A DNA stretch of 64,000 nucleotides from assembly GCA_002368195.1 (NCBI GenBank), contig AP018178.1:5081286-5145285 (forward strand), written 5' to 3'. The stretch comes from Calothrix sp. NIES-2100. GTDB lineage: Bacteria; Cyanobacteriota; Cyanobacteriia; Cyanobacteriales; Nostocaceae. Position numbers and translations under genes: made by a program. Below, piece after piece: positions 18,145 to 47,170 of the stretch; position 1 is the stretch's first letter; each line of letters starts with the position of its first letter. Below the pieces are notes generated by a model that was not told the origin of the DNA, searched no databases, and was given only the letters and a program-made list of their open reading frames with translations.

Positions 18145-18163
18145 ACATCACCCTTCCTTGTTC

Positions 18164-20474: not shown

Positions 20475-20913
20475 TTTATCCCAGAAGATTTTATGACTCT
20501 TCCCCTCGTTATCAGTTATTAATCATCGTTTGCTTCAAGTTCGGTTAATTTCTGCTAATTCAAAACTGTACGCATCCCCCTGTCACAGAGTCTCCGTGTT
20601 AGTTTGAATTACAAGTGTTCATCCTCACTTGATATAAGTCTCTATTGAATAATCAGTTATATTCAGATACTTCAGCGAAACTAAATGCCAGACCAGGTAA
20701 TGTCTAAGATGCCGACTTCTGATACCCAAGTCCTGTTGTTTGCCAAATTTCTCCTCGCGATTTCGGATTTATTAAAGACAGAACAAGTGTTTATTTAAGA
20801 TATAGGTCTATTTCATACCTAATGCCTTAAACGTAGCTTATCTGTACTAATAATAATGTAGATCATGGTGGGGATCAACGACAAGCTTTGTATCTTTTTC
20901 GCAAAGAAACCCT

Positions 20914-21828
20914 TCACATAGTAAAAGTTTCAGTATGTAAACTAGGTATTTTTATCAGACATTTAGATGCAGGATTGTCTATTTCTCCATCTAAATGCTT
21001 TTCTAGCCAATGTTCTAAATCTACAAGTACTTTTTGGTAATTGATATCCTGGTGGAAGTCGTGATAGTCTCCAGGATACTCATAGCTTTCTTTGTCCGGG
21101 AAGCTGACTTTTTGGAAAAATGCCACACTACCTTCTGGCGGTGTAATCCTATCGCCACTGCTATACATAATTAACAAAGGGACTTGTAACTCACTCGCAT
21201 GGTTTTCAACCCATTTTTCAGTCGCGAAAAACTCCGCAGCCAGTCGTGCAGTTCCATACTCGTGACGTAATGGATCTTGGGTGAGAATATAATTCTGACC
21301 GCGTAAACTTGTGCCCTGATCAAGACCGACTTTCAGGCTAAAGTTTGGCCAGACTTGTGAAAGCATTCGCCCCAATGCAACTTTCAGCACAGGAAGGTTA
21401 ACTTTTCCCAAAGCAGGTGCTGTGAGAATTAGCCCTTGCAAACTTTGCGGAAAGCGTAAAGCATAATCAACTGCGATCGCAGCTCCTAAACTATGACCCC
21501 ACAAAAAACATGCACAACTCGGCCCTCGTTCCTGAATCCTGGTTAAAAAGGTATGTAAATCTTCTCGTAACTCTGCCCAGGAATTAATATGTCCTCGTTG
21601 TCCAGGCGATCGCCCATGTCCCCGCAGATCAAAAGCGTAGACAGCATAACCCAAAGGCAGTAAATGCTGCACAGCATCGTTAAACAATCCGCTATGGGCA
21701 CCGAACCCGTGTACCATAGCAATCACTGCCCTTAATTCTCCCTCTGGCTGCCAACTTTGGTAATAAAGATTTAGCCCTCCTGCTCCCGTGAAGGTGCCTT
21801 CAATGTGTGTCATTGCTATACCTACCAA
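20914..21828 (-). CDS. Alpha/beta-hydrolase (lysophospholipase / monoacylglycerol-lipase-like)
   Basis: 'HGFGAHSG' ... nucleophile elbow 'GHSLGA' (GxSxG), 304 aa. Confidence 0.7.
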   Translation of the reverse strand: MVGIAMTHIEGTFTGAGGLNLYYQSWQPEGELRAVIAMVHGFGAHSGLFNDAVQHLLPLGYAVYAFDLRGHGRSPGQRGHINSWAELREDLHTFLTRIQERGPSCACFLWGHSLGAAIAVDYALRFPQSLQGLILTAPALGKVNLPVLKVALGRMLSQVWPNFSLKVGLDQGTSLRGQNYILTQDPLRHEYGTARLAAEFFATEKWVENHASELQVPLLIMYSSGDRITPPEGSVAFFQKVSFPDKESYEYPGDYHDFHQDINYQKVLVDLEHWLEKHLDGEIDNPASKCLIKIPSLHTETFTM

Positions 21829-32476: not shown

Positions 32477-33073
32477 TTATTTGCGCTGATTGCGGATAGC
32501 CTGCTCAAATTCAACAACAGCATCGTACTGATCGGGTATGGCGATATAGTGCAGCAGCAATGCACGATCTAATTCGGGAAAAAACCCACTCCGGTTTACT
32601 TCTTGATACTCGCCATCCTCAGTAAGCCGGAATATTTTAATTTCGTTAGATTTCCAAAACCAAACTTCAGGGACTTTTTTGGGTTTGTACAACTCTGTCC
32701 TGTTAATTGTGCCACTGGTGACAATGACTTCAATCACAATGTCAGGAACTTCTTTTTCTGTGCCGATACTATAAGACTCATCTGGTGTACCTGAAGCATA
32801 GCCTGGTGCTTCTAGTGTGAAACCTCCACGTTTGTAAAATCGAATGCCCAACTGTTTCATGTAAGCTTCTAGCAGCAAGCCAAGGGTACTTTTCACTTTC
32901 TCATGTTTTTCACCAATGGGAGCCATAATTTCTAATATCCCTGACAAATAAGACAGTCGGACATTGCGGTTGTCCTCTAACTGTGCCTCAATTCCTTTGA
33001 ATTGCTCCCACGAAACATCCTTGAGAGTTACCAGTCTTTCTTCGGTGAAATACTCTACAACTGGGATGCTCAT
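32477..33073 (-). CDS. Uma2-family (DUF820) PD-(D/E)xK endonuclease-like protein
   Basis: 198 aa. The composition and 'EVIVTSG' PD-ExK-like core are typical of this family, which is abundant in cyanobacteria. Confidence 0.55.
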   Translation of the reverse strand: MSIPVVEYFTEERLVTLKDVSWEQFKGIEAQLEDNRNVRLSYLSGILEIMAPIGEKHEKVKSTLGLLLEAYMKQLGIRFYKRGGFTLEAPGYASGTPDESYSIGTEKEVPDIVIEVIVTSGTINRTELYKPKKVPEVWFWKSNEIKIFRLTEDGEYQEVNRSGFFPELDRALLLHYIAIPDQYDAVVEFEQAIRNQRK

Positions 33074-33325: not shown

Positions 33326-35224
33326 CTAACGTGTATATTTTATACTTTCAACTTTCCCTAAAAACTTGTCTGTGAAAATGCTCATGACAGTGCGCTTGCG
33401 GACGTTAATATTAGCACTCAAAGACATCCCAGATTGGAGAGGTACGTCTGCACCATTAACATTAAGGGCTTGTTTTTCTAAGCGGATTTCAGCAGCAAAA
33501 CGATAATATGGATGGGTTTGATCGGGAGGTAAAGCATCGGAACCTATACGAACTAAGTGCCCTTTAATATCACTAAATTCAGTGTAAGGAAAAGAGTCAA
33601 TTCTCACATCTACAGGCATTCCAGCTTTGACAAAACCGATATCATTATTGGTGATGAAAACTTGTGCTACAAGGTTTTCTGGAGGGACAATTTTGAGAAT
33701 GGTTTCACTGCTGTTATAAACGTATCCAGAATTGCGAGGTTTTAAATCAAAAATAACACCATCATTTGAGGCTCGCAGTTCTTGATATTTCATATTCAAC
33801 TGAAGTTCGCTGATTTCACTGTTAATTTCTTGGATTTTTTTCTTATTTTCAACAATGACTTTGGTAAGTTGACTATCTATATCAGCGATGCGCTTTTCGT
33901 TATCGGCTATTTTGCTGAGTAAATCTTCTTTGGAAAGGGCGATCGCATTTTGTAGTTTCTTTTCTCCTTGGGCGATCGCTAATTTTAAACGTTCTTCTTC
34001 TTGCACTAGGCGGTTAACTTCAGCTTGGCTAGTGTCTGCGGCTTGTCGTCGTTCTAGGTAGGGTAAACGGGCGAATGCTCCCTTTTTCACCAGCGTTTGG
34101 ATGTTATTGGCAATTTCTAAGTTTGTTGTCAGACTACTTCTAGCACTAATCAGTTGGGCTTGCACTTGATTTAACTGGCGGGTTAATTGTTCCCGATCCA
34201 AGCGCACTGAATCAATCCGAGTTTCTTTTTCTAATTGTCTATTGACTAAGCGTTCTCGAGAACGCGGGTTTAAGTCGCGTATTCCCAAGCCTGCGTTTAA
34301 TTCGGCGCGAAAAAGTTGATTTTCTTGCACCAAAGCTGCACGGTTTTCTGTGAGTGCGGCTAATTCTGGTACTTCCTTTAACTGCTGGGGGCTAGAATTA
34401 GCTGTGAGCGATCGCATCTGCATCTGGTAAAACTGATTTTCTGCCATTAAGCTGGCGCGAACTGCTTGCTGGGAAGTTAATTTCGCCTGACTAGTAGTGC
34501 GATCGAAGCTAACTAATAAGTCGCCTTTTTTGACTCTTTGTCCTTCTTGGACGTGAATTTTAGAAATGACTCCGCCTACTGGTGCTTGGATCTCTTTGAC
34601 AAAACCTTTGGGTTCGAGTTTACCTTGCACGGGAACAGATTCATCAATTTTGGCAGTAGCAGCCCAAATAAGAGAAAAAGTTGTGACTCCAACTATACTC
34701 CAGACAATAGCATGAGACCAAGCACGAGATTGTTTGAGGATGACGGGCTGATCGAACTCTTCTTTCTCTTCAGGTAAAGTCAATCCTGAACCGAAAATAC
34801 CCGTATCCCCTTGCAGGAGAAGTTGCCATTGACGCTGGGCTTGTGGGAAGCGCTTCCAGATTAAAAATATGCCGCCAACGGCAAACAATAATAAAAAACC
34901 GCCCGTAGATAAAAGCATTTCTATCTGTAAAGGACGATATCCCACAGCATCAACATAATTATTGTGATAATCGCTCTTTTGCTGCAATAATGGTTGATTT
35001 TGAGATTGCGTTTGCGCCACTGTTCGCGAATCTTTCGGACTAGTCTCTTGATTAATCGGCGGTGAAAAAGCTAACTCCATGCTTTCTGGTTCACTAACGC
35101 AATTACCAATATCAGATTTTGCTTTTGTTGTCTCATCAGTACGAATTTCTTGACACTGATTAGCCGGTGTTGGCGAAATATTGGAACATTGTGTGCAAGC
35201 TAGCAGTAAAGATAAATCTGGCAT
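33326..35224 (-). CDS. HlyD-family membrane-fusion / secretion protein with a long N-terminal extension
   Basis: A single TM is followed by a coiled-coil-rich periplasmic domain and a C-terminal beta domain. 632 aa, so the true start may be an internal ATG. Confidence 0.7.
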   Translation of the reverse strand: MPDLSLLLACTQCSNISPTPANQCQEIRTDETTKAKSDIGNCVSEPESMELAFSPPINQETSPKDSRTVAQTQSQNQPLLQQKSDYHNNYVDAVGYRPLQIEMLLSTGGFLLLFAVGGIFLIWKRFPQAQRQWQLLLQGDTGIFGSGLTLPEEKEEFDQPVILKQSRAWSHAIVWSIVGVTTFSLIWAATAKIDESVPVQGKLEPKGFVKEIQAPVGGVISKIHVQEGQRVKKGDLLVSFDRTTSQAKLTSQQAVRASLMAENQFYQMQMRSLTANSSPQQLKEVPELAALTENRAALVQENQLFRAELNAGLGIRDLNPRSRERLVNRQLEKETRIDSVRLDREQLTRQLNQVQAQLISARSSLTTNLEIANNIQTLVKKGAFARLPYLERRQAADTSQAEVNRLVQEEERLKLAIAQGEKKLQNAIALSKEDLLSKIADNEKRIADIDSQLTKVIVENKKKIQEINSEISELQLNMKYQELRASNDGVIFDLKPRNSGYVYNSSETILKIVPPENLVAQVFITNNDIGFVKAGMPVDVRIDSFPYTEFSDIKGHLVRIGSDALPPDQTHPYYRFAAEIRLEKQALNVNGADVPLQSGMSLSANINVRKRTVMSIFTDKFLGKVESIKYTR

Positions 35225-35335
35225 GGTTCTACTTGGTAGTTGTCAATAGTCAAGAGTCAATAGTCAGTTGTTATTGGGCATGGGGCATTGGGCATTGGTG
35301 ATTGAGTTTTTTGCTAATTCTGCTTTGTAGCTTTA

Positions 35336-35668
35336 ATTGCTATTTCGGAGTACTCAATTGCTATTTCGGCGATCGCAAAAGCTATTTCGGAGTACTCAAT
35401 TGCTATTTTGGCGAACCCAAAAGCTATTTCGGCGATCGCAAAAGCTATTTCGGAGTACTCAAAAGCTATTTCGGCGAACCCAAAAGCTATTTCGGAGTAC
35501 TCAAAAGCTATTTCGGAGTACTCAAAAGCTATTTCGGCGATCGCAAAAGCTATTTCGGAGTACTCAAAAGCTATTTCGGCGATCGCAAAAGCTATTTCGG
35601 AGAACTCAAAAGCTATTTAAGCGATGCCTGCGGCGGGCTACGCCGGAGCAAAAGCTATTTCCACCTCC
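35336..35668. repeat. 21-bp minisatellite (AAAGCTATTTCGGMGWNCKCA) x about 15 between the ABC and HlyD genes, bracketed by inverted heptamer arrays (35273-35298 GGGCATK; 35667-35696 its reverse complement)
   Basis: Direct read. The units alternate between '...cggagtactca' and '...cggcgatcgca' (HIP1). No start codon in any open frame. Confidence 0.9.
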
Positions 35669-35698
35669 CCATGCCCAATGCCCAATGCCCCATCCCTC

Positions 35699-38620
35699 TC
35701 ATAACTGCGATTCCTGTTGTTGAAACAGACAGTAATACCGCCCTCTCATGGCCATGAGTTCGGCGTGAGTTCCTTGCTCGGCAATTACACCTTGATCCAT
35801 GATGATAATTGTGTCGGCGTTTTTGACGGTGTTAAGTCGGTGGGTAATAAATAAAACTGTTCGTCCATGAAAAAACTCCATGAGATGGCGACAAACTTGT
35901 TGTTCAGATTCGTAATCTAAAGCACTGGTGGCTTCGTCGAGAATCAGTAATCTCGGATTTTGCAACACGGTACGGGCGATCGCAATTCTTTGGCGTTGTC
36001 CCCCAGAAAGGGCGGAACCGCGTTCACCGACAATTGTGTTGTAGCCATCAGGTAAACCCATGATGAAATCATGCGCAGCAGCGGTTTTGGCGGCGGCGAT
36101 AATTTCTTCGGTGGTTGCTTCTGGTCGAATTAAGGCAATATTATCTTGAATTGTACCTTCAAACAAAAGGGTATCTTGTAGCACTATGCCAATCTGCCGG
36201 CGCAGGGAGTTTAATTCTACTTTCCTGATATCATAACCATCTATTTGAATTTTTCCAGCTACAGGTTCGTAGAGCCGGGGTAATAATTTTGTCAATGTGC
36301 TTTTCCCGGAACCGCTTTGTCCGACTATCCCGACAAAGGTTCCTGGGGCAATATCTAAATTGATGTTGATCAGTTTTAAGCTATCTTCTGGGTTAAACCC
36401 AAAGGAAACTCCTGTGTATTTAATTGCACCTGCAATTTCTGGTAGTTGAATATTATGGCGATCGCTGGCTTTGACTTCGGGCGCTGTATCTAAAATGTCA
36501 CCAAGCCGTTCGATGGATAATGCTACTTCTTGGAAGTTTTGGGATAGTTGAATTAACCGCAGCAAGGGACTGGTCACATAACCAGCTATAATCCGAAAGG
36601 CGATTAACTGTCCGACAGTCAATTGATTGGAGATGACTAGATGTGCCCCTACCCACAGCAACACAAAGCTGGAAAATTGATTTAGAAATCCACTGATAGA
36701 GTTAGCGGTGCTAGATGTCAGGACATTCTTAAAGCCGGCGCTGATGTAACGAGTATAGCGATCGCGCCATTGCCAACGAGATTTTAATTCAATATTCTGT
36801 GCTTTGACTGTTTGAATCCCAGTCAGTATTTCAACTAAATAAGATTGAGTATCAGCATAGCGTTCGGCTTTTTTGCGTAACTGTTGCTGGACAATCGGCA
36901 CAACAAAGGTTGTGAGGATGGCAAATAATGGTACAGTCGCTAAAGCCACGAGGGTGAGCATCCAGCTGTAAAACAGCATGATGGCGATATAAATTACAGA
37001 GAACACCGCATCTAGGACTACTGTCAATGCTGTCCCTGTGAGAAATTGGCGGATATTTTCTAGTTCGTTAATCCGTCCAGCTAATTCGCCGACGCGGCGA
37101 CGTTCAAAATAGCTTAGAGGTAGTCGCAGTAAATGTTCAATAACTTCTGAACCTAAACGGATATCGATGCGGTTGGTAGTATCAGCAAATAGATAAATCC
37201 GTAGACTCGTTAAAGCGGCTTCAAATGCGCCAATCACCAGCAAAAAAATGCCCAAAATATCGAGAGTATCCAGGCTTTTCTGGATTAAGACGGTGTCGAT
37301 GATGATTTGGGTAACGATGGGGTTTGCTAATCCAAATATCTGGACAAAAAACGAAGCCACCAAAACTTCAACCAATACTAGACGGTATTTAAAGACGGAA
37401 GGTATGAACCAACGGAGGCTGAATTTTTCGGGGCGATCGCTTTCTGCTATTTCCACCGTCAATACCTGCCCTGATTGTCCCCAAATTTGGGCAAATTCTG
37501 TGGGAGTATATTGACATACTCCTGTTTCGGGAGCAGCCACAACAATTTCCCGCTCTGTAATTTTATACAGCAGGGCGAGATTTTCTTGCCAATAAATTAG
37601 GGCTGGCGCACTCAAGCGGTTGATCACATTAACAGGAACTTTGACTAAATGGGCTTGCAAACCCATCATTTCGATGACTGCGCCTGCTAAAGGTAAGGAA
37701 ATCTGTTTTTGGGATTTCAGGTGATTGGTTAAAAACTTCCGGATTAAATCGCGGCGAAAAGTACCCCCCAATATCTGATTCAACATCTGGAAACAGGCTA
37801 AAGGGGTATCAATTTTGCCCTTCCCCTCTACAAATATAGTTTGTGCTGGGGCGAGATTTTCGGTTATGGGGTCTGGGGGATATTCTGGTGCTGGCGCAAT
37901 TTTTAAACTCGCACCATTTTCCTCAGGAATATTCCACGGAATCCCCAATAAGCGGACTGGGGTTGGGTTTTGCCAAGTTTGGTGAGAGTCACTCAAGGCT
38001 AATCGATAGCCAACAGTCATACCCTCAATGCTACCTGCACTCACTAGCCATAAACGCTGTTGGTCAAAGTCCTGGGAATTCACTGTTCCAGGCGGTAAAT
38101 TTACTACCTGTGTTTCTTGCCAAACTTGGCGTGCTAAATCTTTAGTATCGGTGGTTGCATCGGCGTAACGCTGGATTTCCCGACTTAAGAGTTCAAAAAC
38201 TTCACTAATGTGGGGACGCGATCGCACAGATTCGGCAAATGCTGGCTCTTTGTCCATCAATTGCAGAAATTCTGCTGCTTCTAGAGTAATTGCGATCGCA
38301 TCTGTCGAGGCCATTACCGCCTCGCAACTTATCCCCCGCACCAATCCTAACCACCCCAGAAACTCTCCTTGTTCGACGACAGTTAAACTAATTTGCGAGT
38401 TAGTCCACTGGTCGTCAGCCAATACCCGCGCAGTTCCTTGATAAATCACCATGACATGTGCTGGCATTCTGTCTTTTACCAGCATCCATTGTCCGGTGCG
38501 ATATTGCAACAGTTGGCAGTTATGAGCAACGGTTTTTAAGGTATCAATTTTGAGTGTGTTAAACGGGGGAGTTGCGGCGAGGAATTCGACAATTTCGGTT
38601 TGGGTGATAACTGGCATCAT
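35699..38620 (-). CDS. ABC exporter permease/ATPase with N-terminal cNMP-binding-like and C39-peptidase-like domains (bacteriocin/T1SS type)
   Basis: Walker A 'GQSGSGKSTL', signature 'LSGGQRQRIAIAR', Walker B 'ILDEATSALD'. A six-TM ABC membrane domain sits upstream of the NBD. A C39-like segment carries a Cys in 'TPLACFQ'. The N-terminal ~170 aa look like a beta-roll cNMP-binding fold. The start ATGATG overlaps the stop of the upstream gene (ATGA). Confidence 0.8.
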   Translation of the reverse strand: MMPVITQTEIVEFLAATPPFNTLKIDTLKTVAHNCQLLQYRTGQWMLVKDRMPAHVMVIYQGTARVLADDQWTNSQISLTVVEQGEFLGWLGLVRGISCEAVMASTDAIAITLEAAEFLQLMDKEPAFAESVRSRPHISEVFELLSREIQRYADATTDTKDLARQVWQETQVVNLPPGTVNSQDFDQQRLWLVSAGSIEGMTVGYRLALSDSHQTWQNPTPVRLLGIPWNIPEENGASLKIAPAPEYPPDPITENLAPAQTIFVEGKGKIDTPLACFQMLNQILGGTFRRDLIRKFLTNHLKSQKQISLPLAGAVIEMMGLQAHLVKVPVNVINRLSAPALIYWQENLALLYKITEREIVVAAPETGVCQYTPTEFAQIWGQSGQVLTVEIAESDRPEKFSLRWFIPSVFKYRLVLVEVLVASFFVQIFGLANPIVTQIIIDTVLIQKSLDTLDILGIFLLVIGAFEAALTSLRIYLFADTTNRIDIRLGSEVIEHLLRLPLSYFERRRVGELAGRINELENIRQFLTGTALTVVLDAVFSVIYIAIMLFYSWMLTLVALATVPLFAILTTFVVPIVQQQLRKKAERYADTQSYLVEILTGIQTVKAQNIELKSRWQWRDRYTRYISAGFKNVLTSSTANSISGFLNQFSSFVLLWVGAHLVISNQLTVGQLIAFRIIAGYVTSPLLRLIQLSQNFQEVALSIERLGDILDTAPEVKASDRHNIQLPEIAGAIKYTGVSFGFNPEDSLKLININLDIAPGTFVGIVGQSGSGKSTLTKLLPRLYEPVAGKIQIDGYDIRKVELNSLRRQIGIVLQDTLLFEGTIQDNIALIRPEATTEEIIAAAKTAAAHDFIMGLPDGYNTIVGERGSALSGGQRQRIAIARTVLQNPRLLILDEATSALDYESEQQVCRHLMEFFHGRTVLFITHRLNTVKNADTIIIMDQGVIAEQGTHAELMAMRGRYYCLFQQQESQL

Positions 38621-39369
38621 GCCAAGAGATACTCCACACAATGGTTAGCAGATTCTAAGTGAGTTTGTATTTGTGTTTCTATCCAAGCTTCAAAGAGTTC
38701 ATTTAGCAAATACTGTTGCATATTTTCATCTAACTGGGCTGGTAGTAATTGCTCTAAGCGAATAATTACATACCAATCGGCTATTAAATGCGGTTTCCAA
38801 ATTTGACCTGGTTGACTCACATAGAGAATTTGCTGAATTGTCGGATGAGGTTGAGACAGGGGAACTGGGCCGATAACTCCCCCTGTTTGTGCTTCCGAGC
38901 CTAGGGAATACTGCTGGGCTATGGTTGCGAAAGGATGCTCTCCCTCAACAATCCGAAAATATAGCTCTTGGGCTAAACCTTCATCTTGGGTACGAATCAT
39001 GGAATAGATTACCCGGTCTAAATCTGCTTTGCGGTGCAGAAAATAAGACTCTAGTTTATTACCCCACATTGCAAGTTGGAATTTCTGGATTAATAGCGGA
39101 CGGATTGCTATCTCCTCTAGGATTGCTTCAGTTAGTAGGTTTTTTTGCAACCATGCTTGTTCTACCTCTGGTGAAATAAGTTGGTGACGTTCCCGAAACT
39201 TGGCGATCGCGGCTAGATGTTCTGCTTCGGTGCAAGAGAAAGATGCGATCGCTTCGTCTATCACTTTGGCGCGTAATACCTGTGGTAACAGTTGATAACG
39301 ATTTAGTAAAGACAGTAATTTTTCGCTATGAAGAATTTCGTTACCCACTTGTAATGTTTGTGTCGTCAT
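38617..39369 (-). CDS. Parvulin-like (PpiC-type) peptidyl-prolyl isomerase domain protein, translationally coupled to the ABC exporter
   Basis: 'EHPFATIAQQYSLGSEAQTGGVIGPV' resembles the PpiC/parvulin core. 250 aa. Its stop overlaps the ABC start. Confidence 0.5.
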   Translation of the reverse strand: MTTQTLQVGNEILHSEKLLSLLNRYQLLPQVLRAKVIDEAIASFSCTEAEHLAAIAKFRERHQLISPEVEQAWLQKNLLTEAILEEIAIRPLLIQKFQLAMWGNKLESYFLHRKADLDRVIYSMIRTQDEGLAQELYFRIVEGEHPFATIAQQYSLGSEAQTGGVIGPVPLSQPHPTIQQILYVSQPGQIWKPHLIADWYVIIRLEQLLPAQLDENMQQYLLNELFEAWIETQIQTHLESANHCVEYLLA

Positions 39370-40129
39370 AAGTCCTGACTAGCACGTTTGGCATTCTAAG
39401 GTTGGGGCAGAAATCTGTATATCTCTTGCCTAAGAGTATTTAAAGTTACTAAGGGTTTTACCCCTATCTCTTTTTCTGTTCAGGTATTTTTAACTGCATC
39501 CGGATATTTTTCAATAAGCCTTTGTAAATTTTTTCATCGTTAATCTTACCAAACTTAGCCAAAACTTCAAATTATATATTCTTTTTCAAGTATTTTTTTT
39601 ACAAGGTTATATTAATTACACTGTTTTTTAAAAATATTTAAGTAGTAAAACATACTTTTATTACTTAAATAACAATGGCTTTAAATTAATAAAACCCTTA
39701 CAGGTGAAGATATTTGCAAAAATTATCACTTAAAAAACAAAGTATAAAATATATTTTAAGTACCATGTGACGGTTTATTGACCGACACAAGGTAAGGATC
39801 AATCAAGCTACTGTATCTTTTATGCTGAGGTGAAGCGATTGATGTATTACTACTTACATCTTTTTCCTTTTAACCTACGGGTCTGAATTCAACTACCAGC
39901 GCTGAGGCGTATAAATAGACCCCTAAATATGGAAGTCGCAAGAGAGGAAAAACCCTCTAACATGTAACTTTGAAGTCTCTAGTACAAGATTTTTACCATT
40001 CACAACAGCTTGTGACAGCTTTGCTCTAACTACTCTAATTGACACCTCTTCAGGTTTGCTTCTACCAAAAGTTGCAGCGGAATTGCGATCGCTGTTGAGT
40101 TCATGCGAACAAATCTTTATGAGGATTGA
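39370..40129. promoter_or_regulatory. About 760-bp AT-rich divergent intergenic region
   Basis: No ORFs. Long A/T runs. It lies between the divergently transcribed export operon and the CAP-RTX gene. Confidence 0.35.
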
Positions 40130-42010
40130 TTGATGGCTACAAAAACCTTTGAACAACAAGTTCTCGAACTAACCAACCAAGAACGAGCCAAGCAGGGTCT
40201 TCCAGCACTCAAAGCCAATACAGAACTCAACTATGCGGCGGACAAATATGCAGAGTTGATGGCATCGAAAAATTACTTTAGCCATACAGGCCCGGATGGT
40301 TCCCAACCTAGGGATAGAGCCAAAGCAGTTGGCTTTGAAGCGCAAATAATTGGAGAAAATATCGCTTTTGGTCAAAAAACACCCCAAGAAGTAGTAACAG
40401 CTTGGATGAATAGCCCTGGACACCGAGCCAATATCTTGAATCGCAATTATACTCAACTCGGTGTTGGTTTTGATAAAAAAGATAACGGTTTTTGGGTGCA
40501 AGAGTTTGGTAGTGATGATACTAACCCAGCCAGCAAAATTCCTGGTTCCTCTTCTGGCTCAGGTTCTCAACCCACACCAACACCAACACCAACACCAACA
40601 CCAACACCAACACCAACGAATAATAACGGCACATTTGAACAACAAGTTCTCGAACTAACCAACAAAGAACGCGCCAAGAACGGTTTAGCACCACTCAAAG
40701 GCAATGCAGAACTCAACTATGCAGCGGATAAATATGCAGAGTTGATGGCATCGAAAAATTACTTTAGCCATACAGGCCCGGATGGTTCCCAACCTTGGGA
40801 TAGAATGAGAAAAGTAGGCTTTGATGCTCAAACGATGGGTGAAAACATCGCCGCCGGTCAAAAAACACCCGAAGAAGTGGTGCAAGCTTGGATGAATAGC
40901 CCCGGACACCGAGCTAATATCTTGAATGCCAATTATACCCAACTCGGTGTTGGTTTTGATCACAACTATTGGGTGCAAGACTTTGGTAGTAATGATACTA
41001 ACCCAGCCACCAAAATTCCTGGTTCCTCTTCTGGCTCAGGTTCTCAACCCACACCAACACCAACACCAACACCAACACCAACGCCAACGCCAACACCAAC
41101 ACCAACACCCACTCCAGGCAATAATAATGGTACGTTTGAACAACAAGTTCTCGAACTAACCAACAAAGAACGCGCCAAGAACGGTTTAGCACCACTCAAA
41201 GACAATAAAGAACTTGACTATGCGGCGGACAAATACGCAGAGTTGATGGCATCGAAAAACTACTTTAGTCATACAGGCCCGGATGGTTCTCAACCTTGGG
41301 ATAGAATGAGAAAAGTAGGCTTTGATGCTCAAACGATGGGGGAAAACATCGCCGCCGGTCAAAAAACACCCGAAGAAGTGGTGCAAGCTTGGATGAATAG
41401 CCCTGGACACAGAGCTAATATCCTGAATCGTAATTATACCCAACTCGGTGTTGGTTTTGATCACAACTATTGGGTGCAAGACTTTGGTAGCGATGATACT
41501 AACCCAGACACCAAAATTCCCAATTCCGTATCTAACTCAGGTTCTCAACCCACACCTGATTCTCAAGCTGGTAAGGAACTCAAAGGCACAAACGGTAACG
41601 ATGTCCTCACTGGTGGTACTGGTAATGACAGAATCTGGGGTGGTAAAGGTAACGATACCCTAAATGGAGGTGCTGGAAGCGATCGCCTCATTGGTGGGTT
41701 AGGGCAAGATAAATTAACTGGTGGTGCTGGAAAAGATACCTTTGTCTTTAAACAAGTGCAAGAAAAAGGAGATACTATTACCGATTTTAGCACCAATCAG
41801 GATAAGATTGACTTGCGCGATATTATGGCTGGCCCAGCTTTCACCAGCAAGAACAAATTCTCTGATTACCTGAAATTGCAACAAGTTGGTAGTGATACCG
41901 TTGTTAACTTGGACGTTAATGGTAGTACAAAATCTGGCGGCTTCGAGAAATTAGTTCTCTTGGAAAAAGTTAATGCCTCTAGCTTAAATGCTGGTAACTT
42001 TCTTGTCTAA
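40130..42010 (+). CDS. Secreted protein with three tandem CAP/SCP/PR-1 domains separated by (PT)n linkers, followed by RTX Ca2+-binding repeats
   Basis: The CAP hallmarks 'NYFSHTGPDGS', 'GHRANIL' and 'YTQLGVG' occur three times. Linkers are 'PTPTPTPTPTPTP'. The C-terminus carries 'GGTGNDRIWGGKGNDTLNGGAGSDRLIGGLGQDKLTGGAGKD'. Three ~480-bp DNA repeats are visible. Confidence 0.8.
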   Translation: MMATKTFEQQVLELTNQERAKQGLPALKANTELNYAADKYAELMASKNYFSHTGPDGSQPRDRAKAVGFEAQIIGENIAFGQKTPQEVVTAWMNSPGHRANILNRNYTQLGVGFDKKDNGFWVQEFGSDDTNPASKIPGSSSGSGSQPTPTPTPTPTPTPTPTNNNGTFEQQVLELTNKERAKNGLAPLKGNAELNYAADKYAELMASKNYFSHTGPDGSQPWDRMRKVGFDAQTMGENIAAGQKTPEEVVQAWMNSPGHRANILNANYTQLGVGFDHNYWVQDFGSNDTNPATKIPGSSSGSGSQPTPTPTPTPTPTPTPTPTPTPTPGNNNGTFEQQVLELTNKERAKNGLAPLKDNKELDYAADKYAELMASKNYFSHTGPDGSQPWDRMRKVGFDAQTMGENIAAGQKTPEEVVQAWMNSPGHRANILNRNYTQLGVGFDHNYWVQDFGSDDTNPDTKIPNSVSNSGSQPTPDSQAGKELKGTNGNDVLTGGTGNDRIWGGKGNDTLNGGAGSDRLIGGLGQDKLTGGAGKDTFVFKQVQEKGDTITDFSTNQDKIDLRDIMAGPAFTSKNKFSDYLKLQQVGSDTVVNLDVNGSTKSGGFEKLVLLEKVNASSLNAGNFLV

Positions 42011-42043
42011 TTAATCCAGTTTTTCCGCTCCGTTTGCAGAATC

Positions 42044-42068
42044 GGCGGGGGAAACCCCGCTATTTCTT
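42044..42068 (+). terminator. Rho-independent terminator
   Basis: gcgggg-gaaa-ccccgc followed by TATTTCTT. Confidence 0.6.
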
Positions 42069-42267
42069 AAATTTTGACTCAAACTCGTTCCCTATTAATG
42101 TCAAAGCTCTACAAGCTCTTTTAGATTTTTAGTCTGTGTCGTGTAGCGTTCATCGAAGTTTCGAGCGACGACTTCCGCCGCTCGAACTTTTCTCTATGGT
42201 TGTTAAACTTTCGATAAATGATTTTTTAACCGCAGAGAGCACAGAAAACACAGAGGCTAACTAGCGA

Positions 42268-44136
42268 TTATTTAGCAATATTACCAATCTGATTCCAAGC
42301 ATTCACTACTTCTAAGAGATTTTTCGGCAAGTTCTTTTGAGAAATATCGTTATATCTCACCGTACCTTCTTTACTGGTCAGGGTATAGGTAATATAATCA
42401 GCAGATCCTTGTGGCGCTGGATAACTCAAATTTTGGAATTTGGCAAAGCGCGATCGCTCTAATAACTGCAAAAATTGTTGCACCTGTTGCTGAGAAATCC
42501 GGCGCACACTCCGAGAAGAATCATTAGCATCGCCAATCCGCACTCTAATCAAGGTTCCATCTTTAAGTAAAACAGTTTCATAGGTTCTAGGAGCAAACCC
42601 ACCACTAGAAATCTGCCGAAACACCACATCTCTATCTAACGGTGCTGGGAGTTCATTTGTGGGAATTGGTACTCCACCACCTACTGCACCACCCGTACCG
42701 CTATCAGCAATTGAATTACTCCGCAGCCGATTCCAGCCTTTTAAGACAATTCGTAAATTTTGCGGTAGTTGATATAGAGTAATATTGTTGTACTTGACAG
42801 TACCTTCTGGGCTGGTGAGGGTATAGGTAACGTAATCAGCTGCGCCGCTGGGTGCAGGATAACTTAAATTTTTGAATTCACCAAATTTTTTGCGAGTTAA
42901 TAATTGTTGAAACTGTTGTACCTCTTGGAGAGAAACACGGCGAACTGTACGTTCAGAATCGTTAGCATCACCAACTTTTACCCGAATCAAGCGCCCATCA
43001 TTGAGTAAAACAGTTTCATAGGTTGTACCCGCCAAGCCACCACTAGAGATTTGGCGAAATACGACATTTTGATCTAACGGTGGTGGTAACTCATCTTGAG
43101 GGATTGGTACTGGTGTAACGCTACCAGTATTACCATTTGGCCTATCACTACTAGCAAGCTGGATTTGGGAACCACTTTCATCACTGAGAAATACCCAAGG
43201 ACTGATTCTATTAGCTGATTTTACAAATACTTCCCAGCCAGATACTAGTATTGGATCGCAAAGATTACGAATAGTTGGATTTTCGCAACCCCGAGAAAAT
43301 TGTTTTTGCTTATAAGCAACAATGTTAAGTTCGCTGATAGATAGCTTGGAAACCAGGGAAGCTTGGCGCAAAACTCCATCTTTCACTGTTTGGGGTAATT
43401 TTTGACTAGCAGTTTGGCTAGCTTTTTCATTTAACCTCAGCCCGGAACCTGTTTCATCAGCGTGATATACCAAGCTTTGTCCAACTGCGCCCACAACTAT
43501 CCGCCAACCTGGTACTATAGCTCTGAGACAACCTTCATTAGCATTACCTAATTCTAAACAGCCATCTCTCCAATCTTGTTGTTGAGCTTGAATAATATTT
43601 AGCTGAGAAATCGGTTGTTGCAAACGTGCAGATGCAGCTTGCAAAACTTGATTTTTGACAGATTGTGGTAATTGGGTTGTGGGGTTATTTGTAGGAGTCT
43701 GTGCGGAAGCTAACCGGATGGAACGCCCATTGTTATTAGTGTGATAAACCCAATTTTGTCTACCATCAGATACTACAAATCGCCAACCAGGAACTATGGC
43801 TTGTGTACAGAATTCATCTGGCTGAGATAGTTCTAAGCAACTATTGCGCCAATTTTGTTGGCTGTAATTAATAATTTGCAGTTTTTGTGTTGAGATTCCC
43901 GTTCTCCGAGATAAATCCTGTAGCACCACATTAACTATTGAACGTGGTAATTGGTTTTGGTTTAAATTTTGTGTTAGAACTTCATTTTTTGTGTCTGGTG
44001 AAGTCTCAAGAGCAGCAGCACTACTGTTTTTGATTAATGTCAACCCGCTACCAACTGATAAAATTCCAGTTAACACTAAGGCAGTGAAAATCCGTGCTTG
44101 ATTGCTGGTAGAATAATTACCCAAAGATCCTTTCAT
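42268..44136 (-). CDS. Secreted hypothetical protein with internal duplications (3x ~85-aa N-terminal and 2x ~140-aa C-terminal modules)
   Basis: N-terminal signal peptide. Repeated 'DWR(D/N)(S/G)CLEL...C..AIVPGWR' Cys-pair modules, and a duplicated 'PLD.(N/D)VVFRQISSGG...YETVLL.DG.LIRV..GDANDS.R.VRR' module. Confidence 0.6.
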   Translation of the reverse strand: MKGSLGNYSTSNQARIFTALVLTGILSVGSGLTLIKNSSAAALETSPDTKNEVLTQNLNQNQLPRSIVNVVLQDLSRRTGISTQKLQIINYSQQNWRNSCLELSQPDEFCTQAIVPGWRFVVSDGRQNWVYHTNNNGRSIRLASAQTPTNNPTTQLPQSVKNQVLQAASARLQQPISQLNIIQAQQQDWRDGCLELGNANEGCLRAIVPGWRIVVGAVGQSLVYHADETGSGLRLNEKASQTASQKLPQTVKDGVLRQASLVSKLSISELNIVAYKQKQFSRGCENPTIRNLCDPILVSGWEVFVKSANRISPWVFLSDESGSQIQLASSDRPNGNTGSVTPVPIPQDELPPPLDQNVVFRQISSGGLAGTTYETVLLNDGRLIRVKVGDANDSERTVRRVSLQEVQQFQQLLTRKKFGEFKNLSYPAPSGAADYVTYTLTSPEGTVKYNNITLYQLPQNLRIVLKGWNRLRSNSIADSGTGGAVGGGVPIPTNELPAPLDRDVVFRQISSGGFAPRTYETVLLKDGTLIRVRIGDANDSSRSVRRISQQQVQQFLQLLERSRFAKFQNLSYPAPQGSADYITYTLTSKEGTVRYNDISQKNLPKNLLEVVNAWNQIGNIAK

Positions 44137-44753
44137 ATTCTAGTTATAATCAGTTCCTACTCAAATAATTGCTACTCTGCAAATAAATACCTAAGAGGAT
44201 GTTTGCAACCTCACCCCCTCACCAAATTTTAGATTTTGCGAAAAGTTCGCTCGCCGCAAGCCGACGTTCTGAACTTTTCAAGTTAGATTTTAGATTTTGG
44301 ATTATATTATCCAACTACAATCCTTGCAAGCAAAATTCCAAATTATTTGATCTTCCTTCCCACTTCTTTGTGAGTCAAAACTTTTTTAACTGGAATGGGA
44401 GTTTCAAAGCCTCTATAATCATCAAAGCTGCTCCTACCGCTACTCTTCTCAGAGGAGAGGGGCGCTAGGAGAAGTAGGAGAGAGGTTTTTAGTCAATCTT
44501 GCTACTTGACACACAACAACGCCAAAATCTAAAGCCAAACAGCTGGAAATTAAACAAGCGTCAATCTTCTGATGCAGATGTGAAGATAGACGCTGCTATG
44601 TTGATGATTTGTTCCTAAATTATTAAATGTAGTGTTGCGATCTAAAATTCAGCCGTTCATAAATTTCTACTGAGTGGCTTGAGGTATACCACACCAAAAG
44701 CCCCAGTTAATATCAAACTTAAAATCCACAATAGTATTAAGCACTGAGAAGTA

Positions 44754-45254
44754 TTAAGCACTGAGAACTTGTTGTTCAATCGTCTGATTATTTGGGACAT
44801 CAAATCTAATCGTACTAGCTGCCCAATCTTTTAAATCAGGTGCTAGCCAAACTAGTTTGCGGAGAATTTCATCATTCACCCACAATACTAAAGGGCAATG
44901 AAACTGTTTGCGGAACTCATCTCGCATCAGATTGGTACTAATGATGAGTTCGTTAATATCAATTACAGATTCTAAACCTCTGACCATCAATACATCAGGT
45001 GTGTTAAAACCTACTGTAGTTGAGATGGTTGTATACAGTGTTTCCGTTGCAGGCGGAAGTACAATCTCTTGGATATGGGCCGATGAGAATTCTGTTAACA
45101 GATTTAGTACCTGCTGTTGCCTATTAGCAGAGTTACAAGATACCAAAATTAATGAAAATGCACCAGCAGAAACCATCATCGCTCTTGCGAGTCGTTTGGT
45201 GGCTGCGACAGTATTCCCCATACCGTCTTGTGAATTGTTAAAGCTGCTGATCAT
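44754..45254 (-). CDS. Hypothetical protein (166 aa)
   Basis: ORF only. The N-terminus has a hydrophobic segment followed by Cys ('VSCNS'), a possible lipobox. Confidence 0.35.
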   Translation of the reverse strand: MISSFNNSQDGMGNTVAATKRLARAMMVSAGAFSLILVSCNSANRQQQVLNLLTEFSSAHIQEIVLPPATETLYTTISTTVGFNTPDVLMVRGLESVIDINELIISTNLMRDEFRKQFHCPLVLWVNDEILRKLVWLAPDLKDWAASTIRFDVPNNQTIEQQVLSA

Positions 45255-45743
45255 TATAAAATCCTGCCTTTGGTCTTTAAAAGTACCTTAGCTTTTTCAG
45301 TTTAATTCGTTCACCAAGTAGTTATCCAAAGTATTTTTGGGTAAAATTCGATAACAATTTATTTGATGACCTACAGTAATCTTACGCAAGATTTAATAAT
45401 TGAGGATGGAGTGTGTGACCCCGCATTTACGGTAAATAGATAGAAGGTATGTAATTCAAATAACAACACAGCCAAATTTCCAGGATTGTTGAGTAGTTGA
45501 TACCTAAAAATCACTGTTGGCTACATTACCCTGCCAAAGCGCACAGAGAACAGGAAAGTCAGGGAAAGAAGCTTCAGGTGTCCAGATTTTCTGCAAAACT
45601 CTCCTAGGAGTGGTAAAAATCAGGTTACATCATCGGCGTAAACTCATGACAACAATTGGTATAAATATTTAACCAGCAGGTAACAAAGCAACTTCTGTTG
45701 GGCTATTTAAGTCATGGTTTGTGTTGGAGAACGCCTGTAACAA

Positions 45744-46997
45744 ATGATGAACAAACTGGTGAAGCGGTTAGTGACTGTTGTCAGAGGGAATTTTTACCAA
45801 AGTAGAAAGCGGGCGATATTTGCCATAATATTGACTTTGAGCATGGTAGCTACTGTGATGCTTTCCTTACCCTTAAATGCTCAAAGTCCGCCTTTGCGAT
45901 CGCCTGGAGCGGAATTAAGAGGTGTCTGGTTAACAAATATTGATAGTGATGTGCTATTTGAACAGACTCGCCTCAAAAAATCTTTACAACGGCTGAGTGA
46001 ACTCAATTTTAATACTGTATACCCAACAGTGTGGAACTGGGGCTATACCTTGTATCCTAGCAAAGTTGCTGCCACAGCCATCGGGCGATCGCTCGACCCC
46101 ACCCCCGGACTCCAAGGGCGAGATCTGCTCAAAGAAGTTGTGGAAGAAGGACATAAACAAAATTTAACAGTCATTCCCTGGTTTGAATTTGGTTTTATGG
46201 CGCCGGCTGATTCCGAATTAGCCAAACGTCATCCCCAGTGGCTGACTAATCGCCGAAACGGAGAGCGAATTGTCAAAGAAGGAACCCACGACCGAGTTTG
46301 GCTGAGTCCCTTTCGTCCGGATGTGCAAAAATTTATCCAAGATTTAATCGTTGAAATTGTTAAAAACTATAATATCGACGGTATTCAATTTGATGACCAT
46401 TTTGGCTTACCCTCAGAACTAGGCTACGATCCTTATACAGTAGCGCTCTACAGAAAAGAACACCGTGGTCTTGCGCCTTCGTCTAATCCTAAAGATCCAG
46501 AGTGGGTAAGCTGGAGAGCGAATAAAATTACCGACTATATGAAGCAGGTATTCACAGCCATCAAAGCTGTGAAAAAAGACTGTATAGTATCTGTAGCACC
46601 AAATCCCCAACGTTTTTCCTACGAATTCTTTTTAGCAGACTGGCAGAAATGGGAACGGATGGGACTGGTAGAAGATATAGTTTTGCAGATCTATCGGGAT
46701 GATCTGAATGTATTTGTCAGCGAATTAGAGTATCCAGAAGTAAAAGCTGCCAAGAGCCATATTCCCGTGAGTATCGGCATATTATCTGGATTGAAAGGTA
46801 AATCTATCCCCATGCAACAAATTCAAACACAAGTGCAAAAAGTACGCGATCGCAATTTTGCTGGCGTCGCCTTCTTTTTCTATGAAAGCCTCTGGAACAT
46901 CAGTAAAGAAAAACCCTTAGATCGTCAAACCAGCTTCCAGCAAATTTTCCCCACCCGCACAGCCTACCCGAATCTGCTCACAGGCTGGAAACCTTAG
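45744..46997 (+). CDS. GHL10-type (family-10-like) glycoside hydrolase lipoprotein/secreted protein (YngK-like)
   Basis: Signal peptide. 'RGVWLTN' and a TIM-barrel-like composition, with the conserved 'IDGIQFDDHFG' motif typical of this family. Confidence 0.5.
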   Translation: MMNKLVKRLVTVVRGNFYQSRKRAIFAIILTLSMVATVMLSLPLNAQSPPLRSPGAELRGVWLTNIDSDVLFEQTRLKKSLQRLSELNFNTVYPTVWNWGYTLYPSKVAATAIGRSLDPTPGLQGRDLLKEVVEEGHKQNLTVIPWFEFGFMAPADSELAKRHPQWLTNRRNGERIVKEGTHDRVWLSPFRPDVQKFIQDLIVEIVKNYNIDGIQFDDHFGLPSELGYDPYTVALYRKEHRGLAPSSNPKDPEWVSWRANKITDYMKQVFTAIKAVKKDCIVSVAPNPQRFSYEFFLADWQKWERMGLVEDIVLQIYRDDLNVFVSELEYPEVKAAKSHIPVSIGILSGLKGKSIPMQQIQTQVQKVRDRNFAGVAFFFYESLWNISKEKPLDRQTSFQQIFPTRTAYPNLLTGWKP

Positions 46998-47004
46998 GGG
47001 AAGC

Positions 47005-47170
47005 AGGGGAGCAGCACTTCTCTGCGAGACGCTCCGCGAACGACTACGCTCAGTGACCAGGGAGCAGGGGGAAATGAGCAGGGAGTAAGCAAGCAAAAAA
47101 TTCTTATTCTTTCTTGTCCCTCCGAAGTTCTGAGCGGAGGAAGCCTCCGCTCAGACTTCTCTCCTTGTCT
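47005..47170. repeat. Dispersed repeat related to the 5667-5799 element
   Basis: Shared 'tctctgcgagacgctccgcgaacg'. Local inverted repeat tgagcggagg/cctccgctca. Confidence 0.5.

Follow-up and report, generated by a model that had tools for sequence, protein, structure and literature searches.

The gene at positions 40133 to 42010 of the analysed DNA of Calothrix sp. NIES-2100 (the window, 64,000 nt in length) probably codes for a substrate of type I secretion in which three tandem bacterial-type CAP domains (SCP/PR-1 fold) form the passenger. The likely exporter is encoded by a divergent rotamase/HlyB/HlyD operon, and the CAP units appear to be shaped by gene conversion and by one gain of a unit. 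We hold this explanation as a whole, including exporter, function and repeat history, with good confidence, on the basis of sequence comparisons and a structure model.

The protein, hereafter CAP-RTX, has 625 aa, a mass of 67 kDa and no cysteine. From the N- to the C-terminus it comprises three CAP domains with two (Pro-Thr)n linkers, six RTX nonapeptides and a VCA0849-type type I secretion C-terminal domain (Table 1). The ATG start at 40133, with a TTG at 40130 as the alternative, is preceded by a GAGGA at 40121-40125. An in-frame TGA at 40127 makes an N-terminal extension of the protein impossible. Neither a signal peptide nor a lipobox was found in CAP-RTX, and its N-terminus is not hydrophobic (maximum KD 0.13). 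Both the domain architecture and the absence of a Sec signal had been proposed in the original prediction, and both were borne out; in the domain search, PF00188 and PF00353 scored above their cut-offs. The ORFs on the minus strand at 40169-40501, 40685-40978 and 41186-41479 were rejected as genes, being shadows of the repeated CAP units.

Table 1. Features of the CAP-RTX locus, in window coordinates.
Feature	Coordinates	Strand	Basis and remarks
HlyD-family membrane fusion protein, 632 aa	33326-35224	-	TIGR01843, HlyD_3
HlyB-type T1SS ABC transporter with N-terminal cNMP-binding-like and C39-like domains	35699-38641	-	TIGR01846
SurA-like PpiC rotamase, 250 aa, no signal peptide; stop overlaps HlyB start	38617-39369	-	Profile matches; also in L081-L084 and L089
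Conserved promoter-proximal region and long leader of CAP-RTX gene	39741-40132	+	Strong sequence conservation
-10-like TAAAAT in leader region	39745-39750	+	
Conserved leader 19-mer TTCAGGTTTGCTTCTACCA	40049-40067	+	
CAP-RTX gene	40133-42010	+	ORF, Pfam, no signal peptide
CAP unit 1 (aa 5-146)	40145-40570	+	Pfam CAP; NCBIfam YkwD 131 bits, below cut-off of 171
(Pro-Thr)8 linker, hexanucleotide microsatellite (ACCAAC)8 at 40570-40617	40571-40618	+	
CAP unit 2 (aa 167-305)	40631-41047	+	Sequence; AF2 model with CAP fold, pLDDT 91.3
(Pro-Thr)11 linker, hexanucleotide microsatellite (ACCAAC)10.5 at 41047-41109	41048-41113	+	
CAP unit 3 (aa 334-472)	41132-41548	+	Pfam CAP
Six RTX nonapeptides (aa 485-538), putative Ca2+-binding beta-roll	41585-41746	+	Pfam, motif; strands of full-length model at pLDDT about 84-87
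Type I secretion C-terminal target domain (aa 547-619)	41771-41989	+	TIGR03661; protein ends in NAGNFLV
Terminator-like GC-rich hairpin followed by T-rich tail	42044-42061	+	Consensus scan only

The RTX part is matched by Pfam HemolysinCabind (PF00353) with an E-value of 3e-15 and 56.2 bits (cut-off 23). Its six consecutive nonapeptides follow the GGxGxDxUx pattern and match the beta-rolls of CyaA, lipase and serralysin. The predicted C-terminal targeting signal corresponds to TIGR03661, which scores 48-51 bits against a cut-off of 17.6. The pI of 5.4 is less acidic than that of many RTX proteins and counts against a T1SS substrate. The systems of E. coli HlyA, the serralysins and Synechocystis Sll1951 share with CAP-RTX the GGxGxDxUx repeats, an uncleaved C-terminal targeting domain, the absence of a Sec signal and of cysteine, and linked genes for an ABC transporter and a membrane fusion protein. 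The ABC proteins of HlyA-type systems likewise have a C39-like domain without the catalytic Cys. In contrast to these systems, the passenger of CAP-RTX is a set of three CAP domains and not a toxin, protease, lipase or S-layer module, and the nonapeptides are only six. The locus also differs by an extra N-terminal cNMP-binding-like region of ~250 aa in the ABC protein, by a rotamase gene in the first position of the operon, and by the absence of a nearby TolC gene.

Pfam CAP (PF00188) matches the protein in three stretches (E 2e-79, 264.5 bits, cut-off 21.1), the best of them covering profile positions 1-117 of 117. The domain proper has about 120-140 aa; the size of ~160 aa given in the original prediction holds with the linker counted. 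The single-unit AlphaFold model of unit 2 has the alpha-beta-alpha sandwich of the CAP fold. Its top Foldseek match in PDB is 4IFA (E 1e-11, TM 0.78, rmsd 1.4 A, 38% identity), and further matches are BB0689, SAV1118, GAPR-1, P14a and Pry1. The full-length model, built on a 10-sequence alignment, was too poor for the CAP domains (pLDDT 57.7), and the single-unit model was used instead. Residues H51, E75, H97, R98 and N100 of the CAP unit are invariant across 23 aligned sequences, and the FSH, GEN and GHRxN motifs are conserved. Cys-rich disulfides and an N-terminal signal are typical of eukaryotic CAP members, but the Pfam family requires neither.

The CAP units share the compact fold (TM 0.65-0.78) and the FSH/GEN/GHRxN motifs with 4IFA of B. 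anthracis, BB0689 of Borrelia (4D53), SAV1118 of S. aureus (4H0A) and Rhodobacter DalA. These bacterial single-domain CAP proteins carry Sec or lipoprotein signals and function at the cell surface, in the wall or in the periplasm, whereas in the Calothrix protein the domain is triplicated, Cys-free and predicted to be exported by a T1SS. An assignment to the DalA and YkwD families from whole-protein scores was dropped. The whole protein passes both cut-offs because its three units add up; single units score 131-134 against 171 for YkwD (TIGR02909) and 81-87 against 200 for the DalA equivalog (NF052539).

The CAP-RTX family is common in cyanobacteria and already annotated, and the window protein is a further member. 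The original prediction had called such fusions unusual, but of the 120 best relatives of unit 3 plus tail in the database, 69 contain PF00188 together with PF00353. These CAP-RTX relatives come from Tolypothrix, Aulosira, Fischerella, Halotia, Nodularia, Anabaena, Acaryochloris, Thermocoleostomius and other genera, and are named in NCBI as "CAP domain-containing protein" or [quoted passage not shown]. Database members (e.g. from Tolypothrix sp. FACHB-123, 457 aa, and from Aulosira, Fischerella, Halotia and Nodularia) have the same domain order and C-terminal domain as the window protein and are 70-80% identical to it over unit 3 plus tail; the closest relatives also share synteny and leader sequence with the window gene. 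A search for copy-number variants among the relatives revealed forms with one, two and three units. Most of the relatives listed are single-unit proteins of about 265-360 aa, and a few have two units, as does the Tolypothrix sp. FACHB-123 orthologue. The three-unit form is rare, being confined among the relatives listed to the window protein and a metagenomic protein of 618 aa (P0001). A profile search of genome contigs with the family alignment returned mostly Streptomyces and Bacillota through the generic CAP motif SPGHRANIL, and no close orthologues. No experimental study of CAP-RTX proteins was found in a CAP-directed literature search, and the exoproteome papers on Anabaena that were examined do not mention them. 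To our knowledge, hardly any functions have been assigned to bacterial CAP-domain proteins, and the majority of cyanobacterial RTX proteins lack one. The proposed mechanism and the family both belong to known kinds and do not overturn current understanding.

Direct DNA repeats in the CAP-RTX gene have periods of 486 and 501 nt. For units 2 and 3, identity is 93.5% at the protein level and 92.8% at the DNA level, compared with 83.5% and 88.0% for units 1 and 2, and 81.3% and 84.9% for units 1 and 3. Hence only one pair is near-identical. The predicted identity of more than 85% holds for units 2 and 3 but not for unit 1, which lies just below 85% in protein. With a dS of about 0.21 separating units 2 and 3, the duplication was overstated as "very recent". 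With dN/dS of 0.21-0.45 between units, each CAP unit is under purifying selection.

Unit 2 is mostly unit-3-like but unit-1-like in two tracts, namely columns 141-224 of alignment A2, and the last ~60 nt from 40990 together with the linker. In a two-unit ancestor, one unequal crossover between its units 1 and 2 would be enough to produce a middle unit whose 3' end and linker are of the unit-1 type, as is seen from column 434 on, and units 2 and 3 of the window are sisters in the unit tree with 96% bootstrap. Both observations would fit a recent tandem duplication and normal subsequent divergence without any gene conversion, but this explanation of the unit similarity is unlikely. Site patterns along the unit switch not once but at least four times (23|1, 12|3, 23|1, 12|3), and their clustering is significant (breakpoint Fisher p 2e-5; none of 2000 permutations reaches the observed value).

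Silent sites also speak against duplication alone. The silent-site distance between units of the same gene is 0.18-0.35 in four of six genes, whereas it is at least 0.36 between orthologues of different genomes. Five of the six genes, two-unit genes included, have a within-gene distance lower than that to any orthologue; in the gene of locus L082 it equals the lowest cross-genome value (0.62 vs 0.58-0.59). Amino-acid distances still group the CAP units by position: by dN, units 2 and 3 of the window are closest to unit 2 of the L086 gene (0.07-0.09, vs 0.11 to its unit 1). In the unit tree, the units of P0006 and P0007 partly group by genome, which likewise counts against duplication only. The same tree gives positional orthology of units only 55% bootstrap, which counts against the repeat model proposed here.

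The mosaic sites and the silent-site homogenisation indicate gene conversion plus one lineage-specific gain from two to three copies, so that both parts of the predicted "recent duplication or ongoing gene conversion" have a counterpart in the data. A two-unit gene was probably ancestral in the clade, with the third unit gained in the window lineage. Intragenic gene conversion would then keep the CAP units similar, while the linker microsatellites could change length by slippage. The locus offers a clean small case of concerted evolution inside one bacterial gene.

The export mechanism of HlyA by HlyB, HlyD and TolC is established. By analogy with it, the unfolded CAP-RTX chain would be engaged by the C39-like domain and the nucleotide-binding domains of the ABC protein and passed, starting with its C-terminus, through ABC-HlyD and a TolC-like channel whose gene lies elsewhere. 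Folding of the beta-roll by extracellular Ca2+ would make export irreversible, and the three CAP domains, kept apart by extended Pro-Thr linkers, would fold outside the cell. There, the protein might act as a multivalent, non-enzymatic binder of an envelope or matrix polymer or of a small ligand. This assignment is tentative. We base it on an analogy with DalA and on the invariant residues of a putative His/Glu/His pocket (H51, E75 and H97 in the 23 sequences). The analogy is weak, since single units score below the YkwD and DalA cut-offs. DalA is a peptidoglycan-binding CAP lipoprotein (PMC10470522).

Alternatively, the CAP modules could be PR-1/Pry-like binders of sterols or lipids, and the protein an effector against eukaryotes such as grazers, chytrids or oomycetes. 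The fold does match Pry1 and plant PR-1 proteins (TM 0.55-0.61), and a one-step export route would bypass the periplasm, so that the cell's own peptidoglycan would not be directly reached. However, the closest structures are compact bacterial CAP proteins (4IFA, BB0689 and SAV1118), identity to eukaryotic members is only 14-24%, and no sterol-binding loop was identified in the CAP modules, which makes an anti-eukaryote effector that binds sterols or lipids improbable.

The operon lies head-to-head with the CAP-RTX gene and has the order rotamase, HlyB-type ABC, HlyD; from its sequence, the SurA-like rotamase is cytoplasmic. The ABC protein probably has its true start at an ATG codon (38620), which makes it 973 aa long, the length of its orthologues. 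The protein scores 741.1 bits with TIGR01846 (cut-off 725.55), and its match to cNMP_binding is borderline (26.4 vs 27.5). The HlyD gene follows the ABC gene on the same strand after 474 nt; its product is 1.5 bits short of the TIGR01843 cut-off (207.1 vs 208.65) and above that of Pfam HlyD_3 (80.2 vs 22.2). A Pfam scan found no TolC-like gene among the 33 ORFs of at least 150 aa in the window; it covered all of them except a 183-aa ORF at 10584-11135 and a 151-aa shadow ORF at 35302-35757. The missed HlyD cut-off and the lack of a TolC-like gene in the window both count against the export model. A precedent comes from Synechocystis, where the S-layer protein Sll1951, described as a hemolysin-like RTX protein in a review of the RTX family (PMC3034196), leaves the cell through the HlyB and HlyD analogues Sll1180 and Sll1181 and the TolC homologue Slr1270 (PMC11594277).

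The same exporter composition is known under another name. Wang et al. 2011 (PMC3140520) defined "group I bacteriocin gene clusters" by the combination of a rotamase, a long-type ABC protein with CAP_ED and C39, and HlyD, exactly the composition of the Calothrix cassette with its SurA-like rotamase. The cassette might then process and export double-glycine peptides, its adjacency to CAP-RTX being meaningless and CAP-RTX using another T1SS or staying unexported. The rotamase has a weak match to the peptide-maturation family TIGR04500 (39.5 bits, cut-off 180), and some CAP-RTX genes are located away from any T1SS. Yet a bacteriocin exporter is very unlikely here. In all five orthologues the C39-like domain has Thr or Ala aligned to HlyB Tyr9, where C39 peptidases carry their catalytic Cys, and the alignment shows a gap in the His region, as in HlyB. 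From this alignment the domain cannot be a cysteine protease and is of the HlyB type, predicted to be catalytically dead. Among solved structures, E. coli HlyB (589 bits) is by far the nearest to the ABC protein, ahead of PCAT1 (355) and ComA (282). Instead of a short GG-leader peptide, the gene conserved next to the cassette encodes an RTX protein of 67 kDa. For the Calothrix locus the "bacteriocin" label is probably a misnomer, which suggests that at least some cyanobacterial "bacteriocin" export cassettes are T1SS for RTX proteins with a dead peptidase domain.

The rotamase/HlyB(/HlyD) cassette is divergent to a CAP-RTX gene in six loci (the window, L081, L082, L083, L084 and L089), which carry one, two or three CAP units. 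The pairing is kept in L084 and L089 even though their other flank is unrelated. Three more distant CAP-RTX or CAP loci (L085, L090 and L091) have no adjacent T1SS, so the adjacency is clade-specific. Since the linkage persists in six loci, even where other flanks differ, the divergent operon is very probably the cognate exporter of CAP-RTX. Its original description as a plausible exporter is strengthened by this synteny and by the dead HlyB-type C39-like domain. Such a conserved pair of substrate and exporter provides a simple genetic handle on CAP-RTX export.

That the three-copy arrangement is an assembly artefact hiding another copy number is extremely unlikely: a short-read assembly (DRR315829), 100% identical to window positions 41461-47040, does break inside unit 3 where similarity to unit 2 starts, showing that the repeats defeat short-read assemblers, and the exact protein is absent from a collection of 15 billion sequences, but the units are distinguishable by 7-15% of their bases and by unequal linker lengths, the reading frame is intact over 1.9 kb with purifying selection in each unit, and an independent metagenome contig carries a three-unit orthologue with the same synteny (P0001, locus L081).

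In the conserved leader of the CAP-RTX gene, the SD sequence GAGGA at 40121-40125 is predicted to pair with CCUC at 40046-40049, an RNA structure that lacks statistical support. RNAalifold found no covariation support with either five or eight leaders, and an Rfam search of the leader gave only chance-level matches.

A broader and rather improbable scenario would combine these elements. The cassette, which occurs in nearly all cyanobacteria as the "group I bacteriocin cluster", would be a dedicated T1SS for RTX proteins. Its cargo in one clade of heterocystous cyanobacteria would be a CAP protein with one to three units, tuned by unequal recombination and gene conversion and translated under the control of a conserved SD-sequestering leader of ~95 nt. 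CAP-RTX would then be the first bacterial PR-1-like binder delivered by a T1SS, with a matrix or peptidoglycan polymer or a sterol of eukaryotic antagonists as its defined target outside the cell.

A second RTX gene is present in the window. The leader 19-mer has no second copy upstream of this gene or elsewhere in the window, and a metagenome scan for it gave 13 matches, two of which are real.

The CAP-RTX gene is real and well-formed, and its product adds a new member, of unusually high valency, to an annotated but unstudied family of cyanobacterial type I secretion system (T1SS) substrates. Judging by the sequence, its start codon is more likely ATG 40133 than TTG 40130; GAGGA (40121-40125) precedes the ATG by 7 nt, and an in-frame TGA at 40127 excludes a longer N-terminus. 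The product has 625 aa, a pI of 5.4 and no cysteine. The predicted architecture of three CAP domains, Pro-Thr spacers and an RTX cap is confirmed by the two linkers and a Pfam scan (PF00188 three times, all full-length, E 2e-79; PF00353, E 3e-15). The claimed C-terminal secretion signature corresponds to a VCA0849-class type I secretion C-terminal target domain at aa 547-619 (TIGR03661, 48-51 bits versus a cut-off of 17.6), and the N-terminal sequence has no hydrophobic segment. The AlphaFold model of a single CAP unit is confident (pLDDT 91.3). Its closest structures are the compact bacterial CAP proteins 4IFA (TM 0.78, rmsd 1.4 A), BB0689 and SAV1118; GAPR-1, tomato P14a and yeast Pry1 rank next.

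Features of the CAP-RTX locus and its surroundings (nt, window positions; aa, positions in the CAP-RTX protein; columns, DNA alignment A2 of the three CAP units u1-u3)
Feature	Position	Strand	Description
EAD4/NB-ARC protein	6226-9780	+	1184 aa; N-terminal Effector-associated domain 4 (EAD4), NB-ARC NTPase domain
Beta-oxidation-like cluster	11808-21828	-	FadE-type acyl-CoA dehydrogenase with ACDH_C, thiolase, FadB-like 3-hydroxyacyl-CoA dehydrogenase/enoyl-CoA hydratase, AMP-binding acyl-CoA synthetase, alpha/beta hydrolase
Second RTX protein	29148-31253	-	701 aa; 7 HemolysinCabind stretches; 0 Cys; pI 4.05
Uma2-family putative restriction endonuclease	32477-33073	-	between hlyD and second RTX gene
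HlyD-family adaptor	33326-35224	-	632 aa
ABC-hlyD gap	35225-35698		474 nt
ABC transporter	35699-38641	-	973-980 aa
SurA-like PpiC rotamase	38617-39369	-	250 aa; no signal peptide
CAP-RTX ORF	40130 (TTG) or 40133 (ATG) to 42010	+	uninterrupted
CAP units	aa 5-146; 167-305; 334-472		u1; u2; u3
Linkers			(Pro-Thr)8, (Pro-Thr)11; DNA (ACCAAC)8, (ACCAAC)10.5 microsatellites
GGxGxDxUx nonapeptides	aa 485-538		six, consecutive
Site pattern	columns 99-126		u2 = u3
Site pattern	columns 141-224		u1 = u2
Site pattern	columns 231-319 and 405-425		u2 = u3
Site pattern	columns 434-478 and following linker		u1 = u2
Convergent protein	42268-44136	-	622 aa; signal peptide; three Cys-containing N-terminal repeats; two C-terminal Emfourin/DUF6438-like domains (weak matches)
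GHL10 protein	45744-46997		exact match to BAY24346.1

The rarity of CAP-RTX fusions had been overstated. Among the best 120 proteins found with unit 3 and the tail as query, 69 contain both PF00188 and PF00353. Such proteins come from Tolypothrix, Aulosira, Fischerella, Halotia, Nodularia, Anabaena, Thermocoleostomius, Acaryochloris and other cyanobacteria, and are named 'CAP domain-containing protein' or 'type I secretion C-terminal target domain-containing protein' at NCBI; a literature search found no experimental paper on any of them. Copy number varies in these relatives, as genes with one, two and three units exist: most have one CAP unit, a handful have two, and among the relatives examined only the window protein and P0001 (618 aa, metagenomic) have three. 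Tandem CAP domains as such are frequent in the 119 retrieved relatives with a full-length unit (75 with two, 24 with three); Bacillota or Actinobacteria contribute many of these.

A divergent cassette of three genes (rotamase, ABC transporter, HlyD) lies 763 nt from the CAP-RTX gene. The ABC protein scores 741 bits against the HlyB subfamily model (cut-off 725.55), and among solved structures E. coli HlyB is closest (589 bits; the peptidase-containing PCAT1 and ComA score 355 and 282). Aligned with HlyB, the window protein has Thr where the C39 catalytic cysteine would be (Tyr9 of HlyB) and four orthologues have Ala or Thr there; all five lack the catalytic-His segment of the C39-like domain. 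Work on HlyB has established that an inactive C39-like domain marks the T1SS group handling RTX substrates. TTG 38641 is probably not the true ABC start; ATG 38620 gives 973 aa, matching the orthologues, and overlaps the rotamase stop codon by 2 nt (38619-38620). The ABC-hlyD gap is 531 nt in L084, as against 113-158 nt in L081-L083. No TolC-like gene was found in the 64-kb window; the TolC homologue in cyanobacteria is normally encoded elsewhere, as are Slr1270 (PMC11594277) and HgdD.

The head-to-head arrangement of rotamase-ABC(-HlyD) and CAP-RTX genes recurs in five related loci, namely L081 (three CAP units), L082 from Tolypothrix sp. FACHB-123 (two), L083 (two), L084 from Calothrix sp. 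NIES-4071 (two) and L089 (one). In L084 and L089 the genes flanking the opposite side are unrelated to those of the window; at three more distant loci the adjacent T1SS is absent. The proposal that this operon is a plausible exporter thus gains from both its HlyB-type transporter and the retained arrangement, and within this clade we regard the cassette as the cognate exporter; sequence supports the predicted export route well. The cytoplasmic rotamase, encoded first in the operon, might, speculatively, hold the proline-rich substrate export-competent. Synechocystis Sll1180 is presumably of the same long ABC type as the transporter here. It provides a precedent, since together with its HlyD-type partner Sll1181 and the TolC protein Slr1270 this HlyB-type protein exports Sll1951 (PMC11594277), an S-layer protein described as a hemolysin-like RTX protein (PMC3034196). 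In composition the cassette is exactly like the 'group I bacteriocin gene cluster' (rotamase, long-type ABC, HlyD) present in nearly every cyanobacterial genome (Wang et al. 2011, PMC3140520). With its inactive peptidase domain and conserved RTX neighbour, this cassette probably does not merit the 'bacteriocin' label; one of the most useful by-products is the evidence pointing to this 'bacteriocin-type' cassette as an RTX exporter.

The description of the units as near-identical holds for u2 and u3 (93.5% protein, 92.8% DNA identity) and not for u1 (81-84% and 85-88% to the others). Sites at which two units agree against the third are strongly clustered (best breakpoint, Fisher p 2e-5, reached by 0 of 2000 permutations). 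Part of this mosaic, the unit-1-like 3' end and linker of u2, would follow from a single unequal crossover in which units 1 and 2 of a two-unit ancestor recombined; the further switches require conversion tracts. Within single genes, six of which were compared, units lie at synonymous distances of 0.18-0.35 (window, L081, L084, L086) or 0.59-0.62 (L082, L083). For five genes this distance is below any cross-genome unit value (0.36 to >2); for L082 it equals the lowest. Between genomes, dS over the unique C-terminal 150 codons is 0.33-1.37 (0.36-0.92 for pairs including the window). Nonsynonymous distance still sorts units by position: window u2/u3 are at 0.07-0.09 from L086 u2 versus 0.11 from L086 u1, and L082 u2 at 0.10 versus 0.19. 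The dN/dS of 0.21-0.45 between window units indicates purifying selection on all three. The unit tree pairs window u2 with u3 as sisters (96% bootstrap) and groups both with the second units of the relatives P0002 and P0003 (55%); the three units of P0001 fall together (82%). We read the two-unit gene as probably old in this clade. Intragenic conversion would homogenise the units while selection retains some position-specific residues, and a third unit would have been gained in the window lineage and separately in that of P0001. Of the predicted very recent duplication or ongoing conversion, the conversion is borne out by mosaic sites and silent-site homogenisation; 'very recent' is too strong, since u2/u3 dS is about 0.21.

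One contig of a short-read assembly from a public run matches window 41461-47040 at 100% identity and ends at 41461, the exact start of unit 3 similarity to unit 2; the CAP repeats thus defeat short-read assemblers. Three units are favoured by their distinguishable sequences, the intact frame and the three-unit orthologue P0001 on an independent metagenome contig. Truncation or collapse probably often affects close relatives of this gene when short reads or metagenomes are assembled, which would push copy-number counts down.

Five residues of the CAP unit (His51, Glu75, His97, Arg98 and Asn100) do not vary among 23 sequences, which would fit a conserved binding pocket. The sole functional precedent found for a close bacterial relative is DalA, a CAP-type outer-membrane lipoprotein of Rhodobacter that binds peptidoglycan non-covalently (PMC10470522). 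Membership of DalA or of the YkwD sporulation subfamily was rejected, as each unit alone falls below both curated cut-offs. The leading, though tentative, reading is that three such pockets on extended Pro-Thr spacers, anchored to a Ca2+-folded beta-roll, would bind a polymer of the envelope or matrix in a multivalent manner. PR-1-like sterol or lipid binding with an anti-eukaryote role, for which the more distant structural matches might speak, seems improbable and less likely than polymer binding.

The leader of the CAP-RTX gene is another useful by-product. Region 39741-40132 is conserved far beyond neutral expectation (also in L081-L084, L089, L091 and L100), and five loci have intergenic distances of ~740-770 nt. 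A hairpin-forming block (39762-39792) comes after a -10-like GTATAAA box, and a ~95-nt block runs up to the start codon. The 19-mer TTCAGGTTTGCTTCTACCA lies 81-84 nt upstream of the ATG, also where Brasilonema-like MAGs carry a single-CAP gene. In the RNAalifold prediction, CCUC (40046-40049) is paired with the Shine-Dalgarno GAGG (40122-40125); its covariation was not significant, and no Rfam family was found for the leader.

The second RTX protein, encoded ~2 kb beyond hlyD, has no signal peptide, ends in ...YSLNDIQFV and could be a further substrate of the same T1SS; its gene is without the CAP-gene leader motif and does not occur here in L081-L084. The Uma2 family is typically repeated in cyanobacterial genomes, and the Uma2 gene is probably unrelated to the secretion locus. 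In L081, L082, L083 and L086, and not in L084 or L089, the gene for the convergent 622-aa protein lies in synteny with the CAP-RTX gene; emfourin is a metalloprotease inhibitor. The EAD4/NB-ARC protein has an NLR-like conflict or defence architecture. The 11808-21828 run looks like a complete fatty-acid beta-oxidation set and may merit separate attention because cyanobacteria are usually said to be without this pathway.
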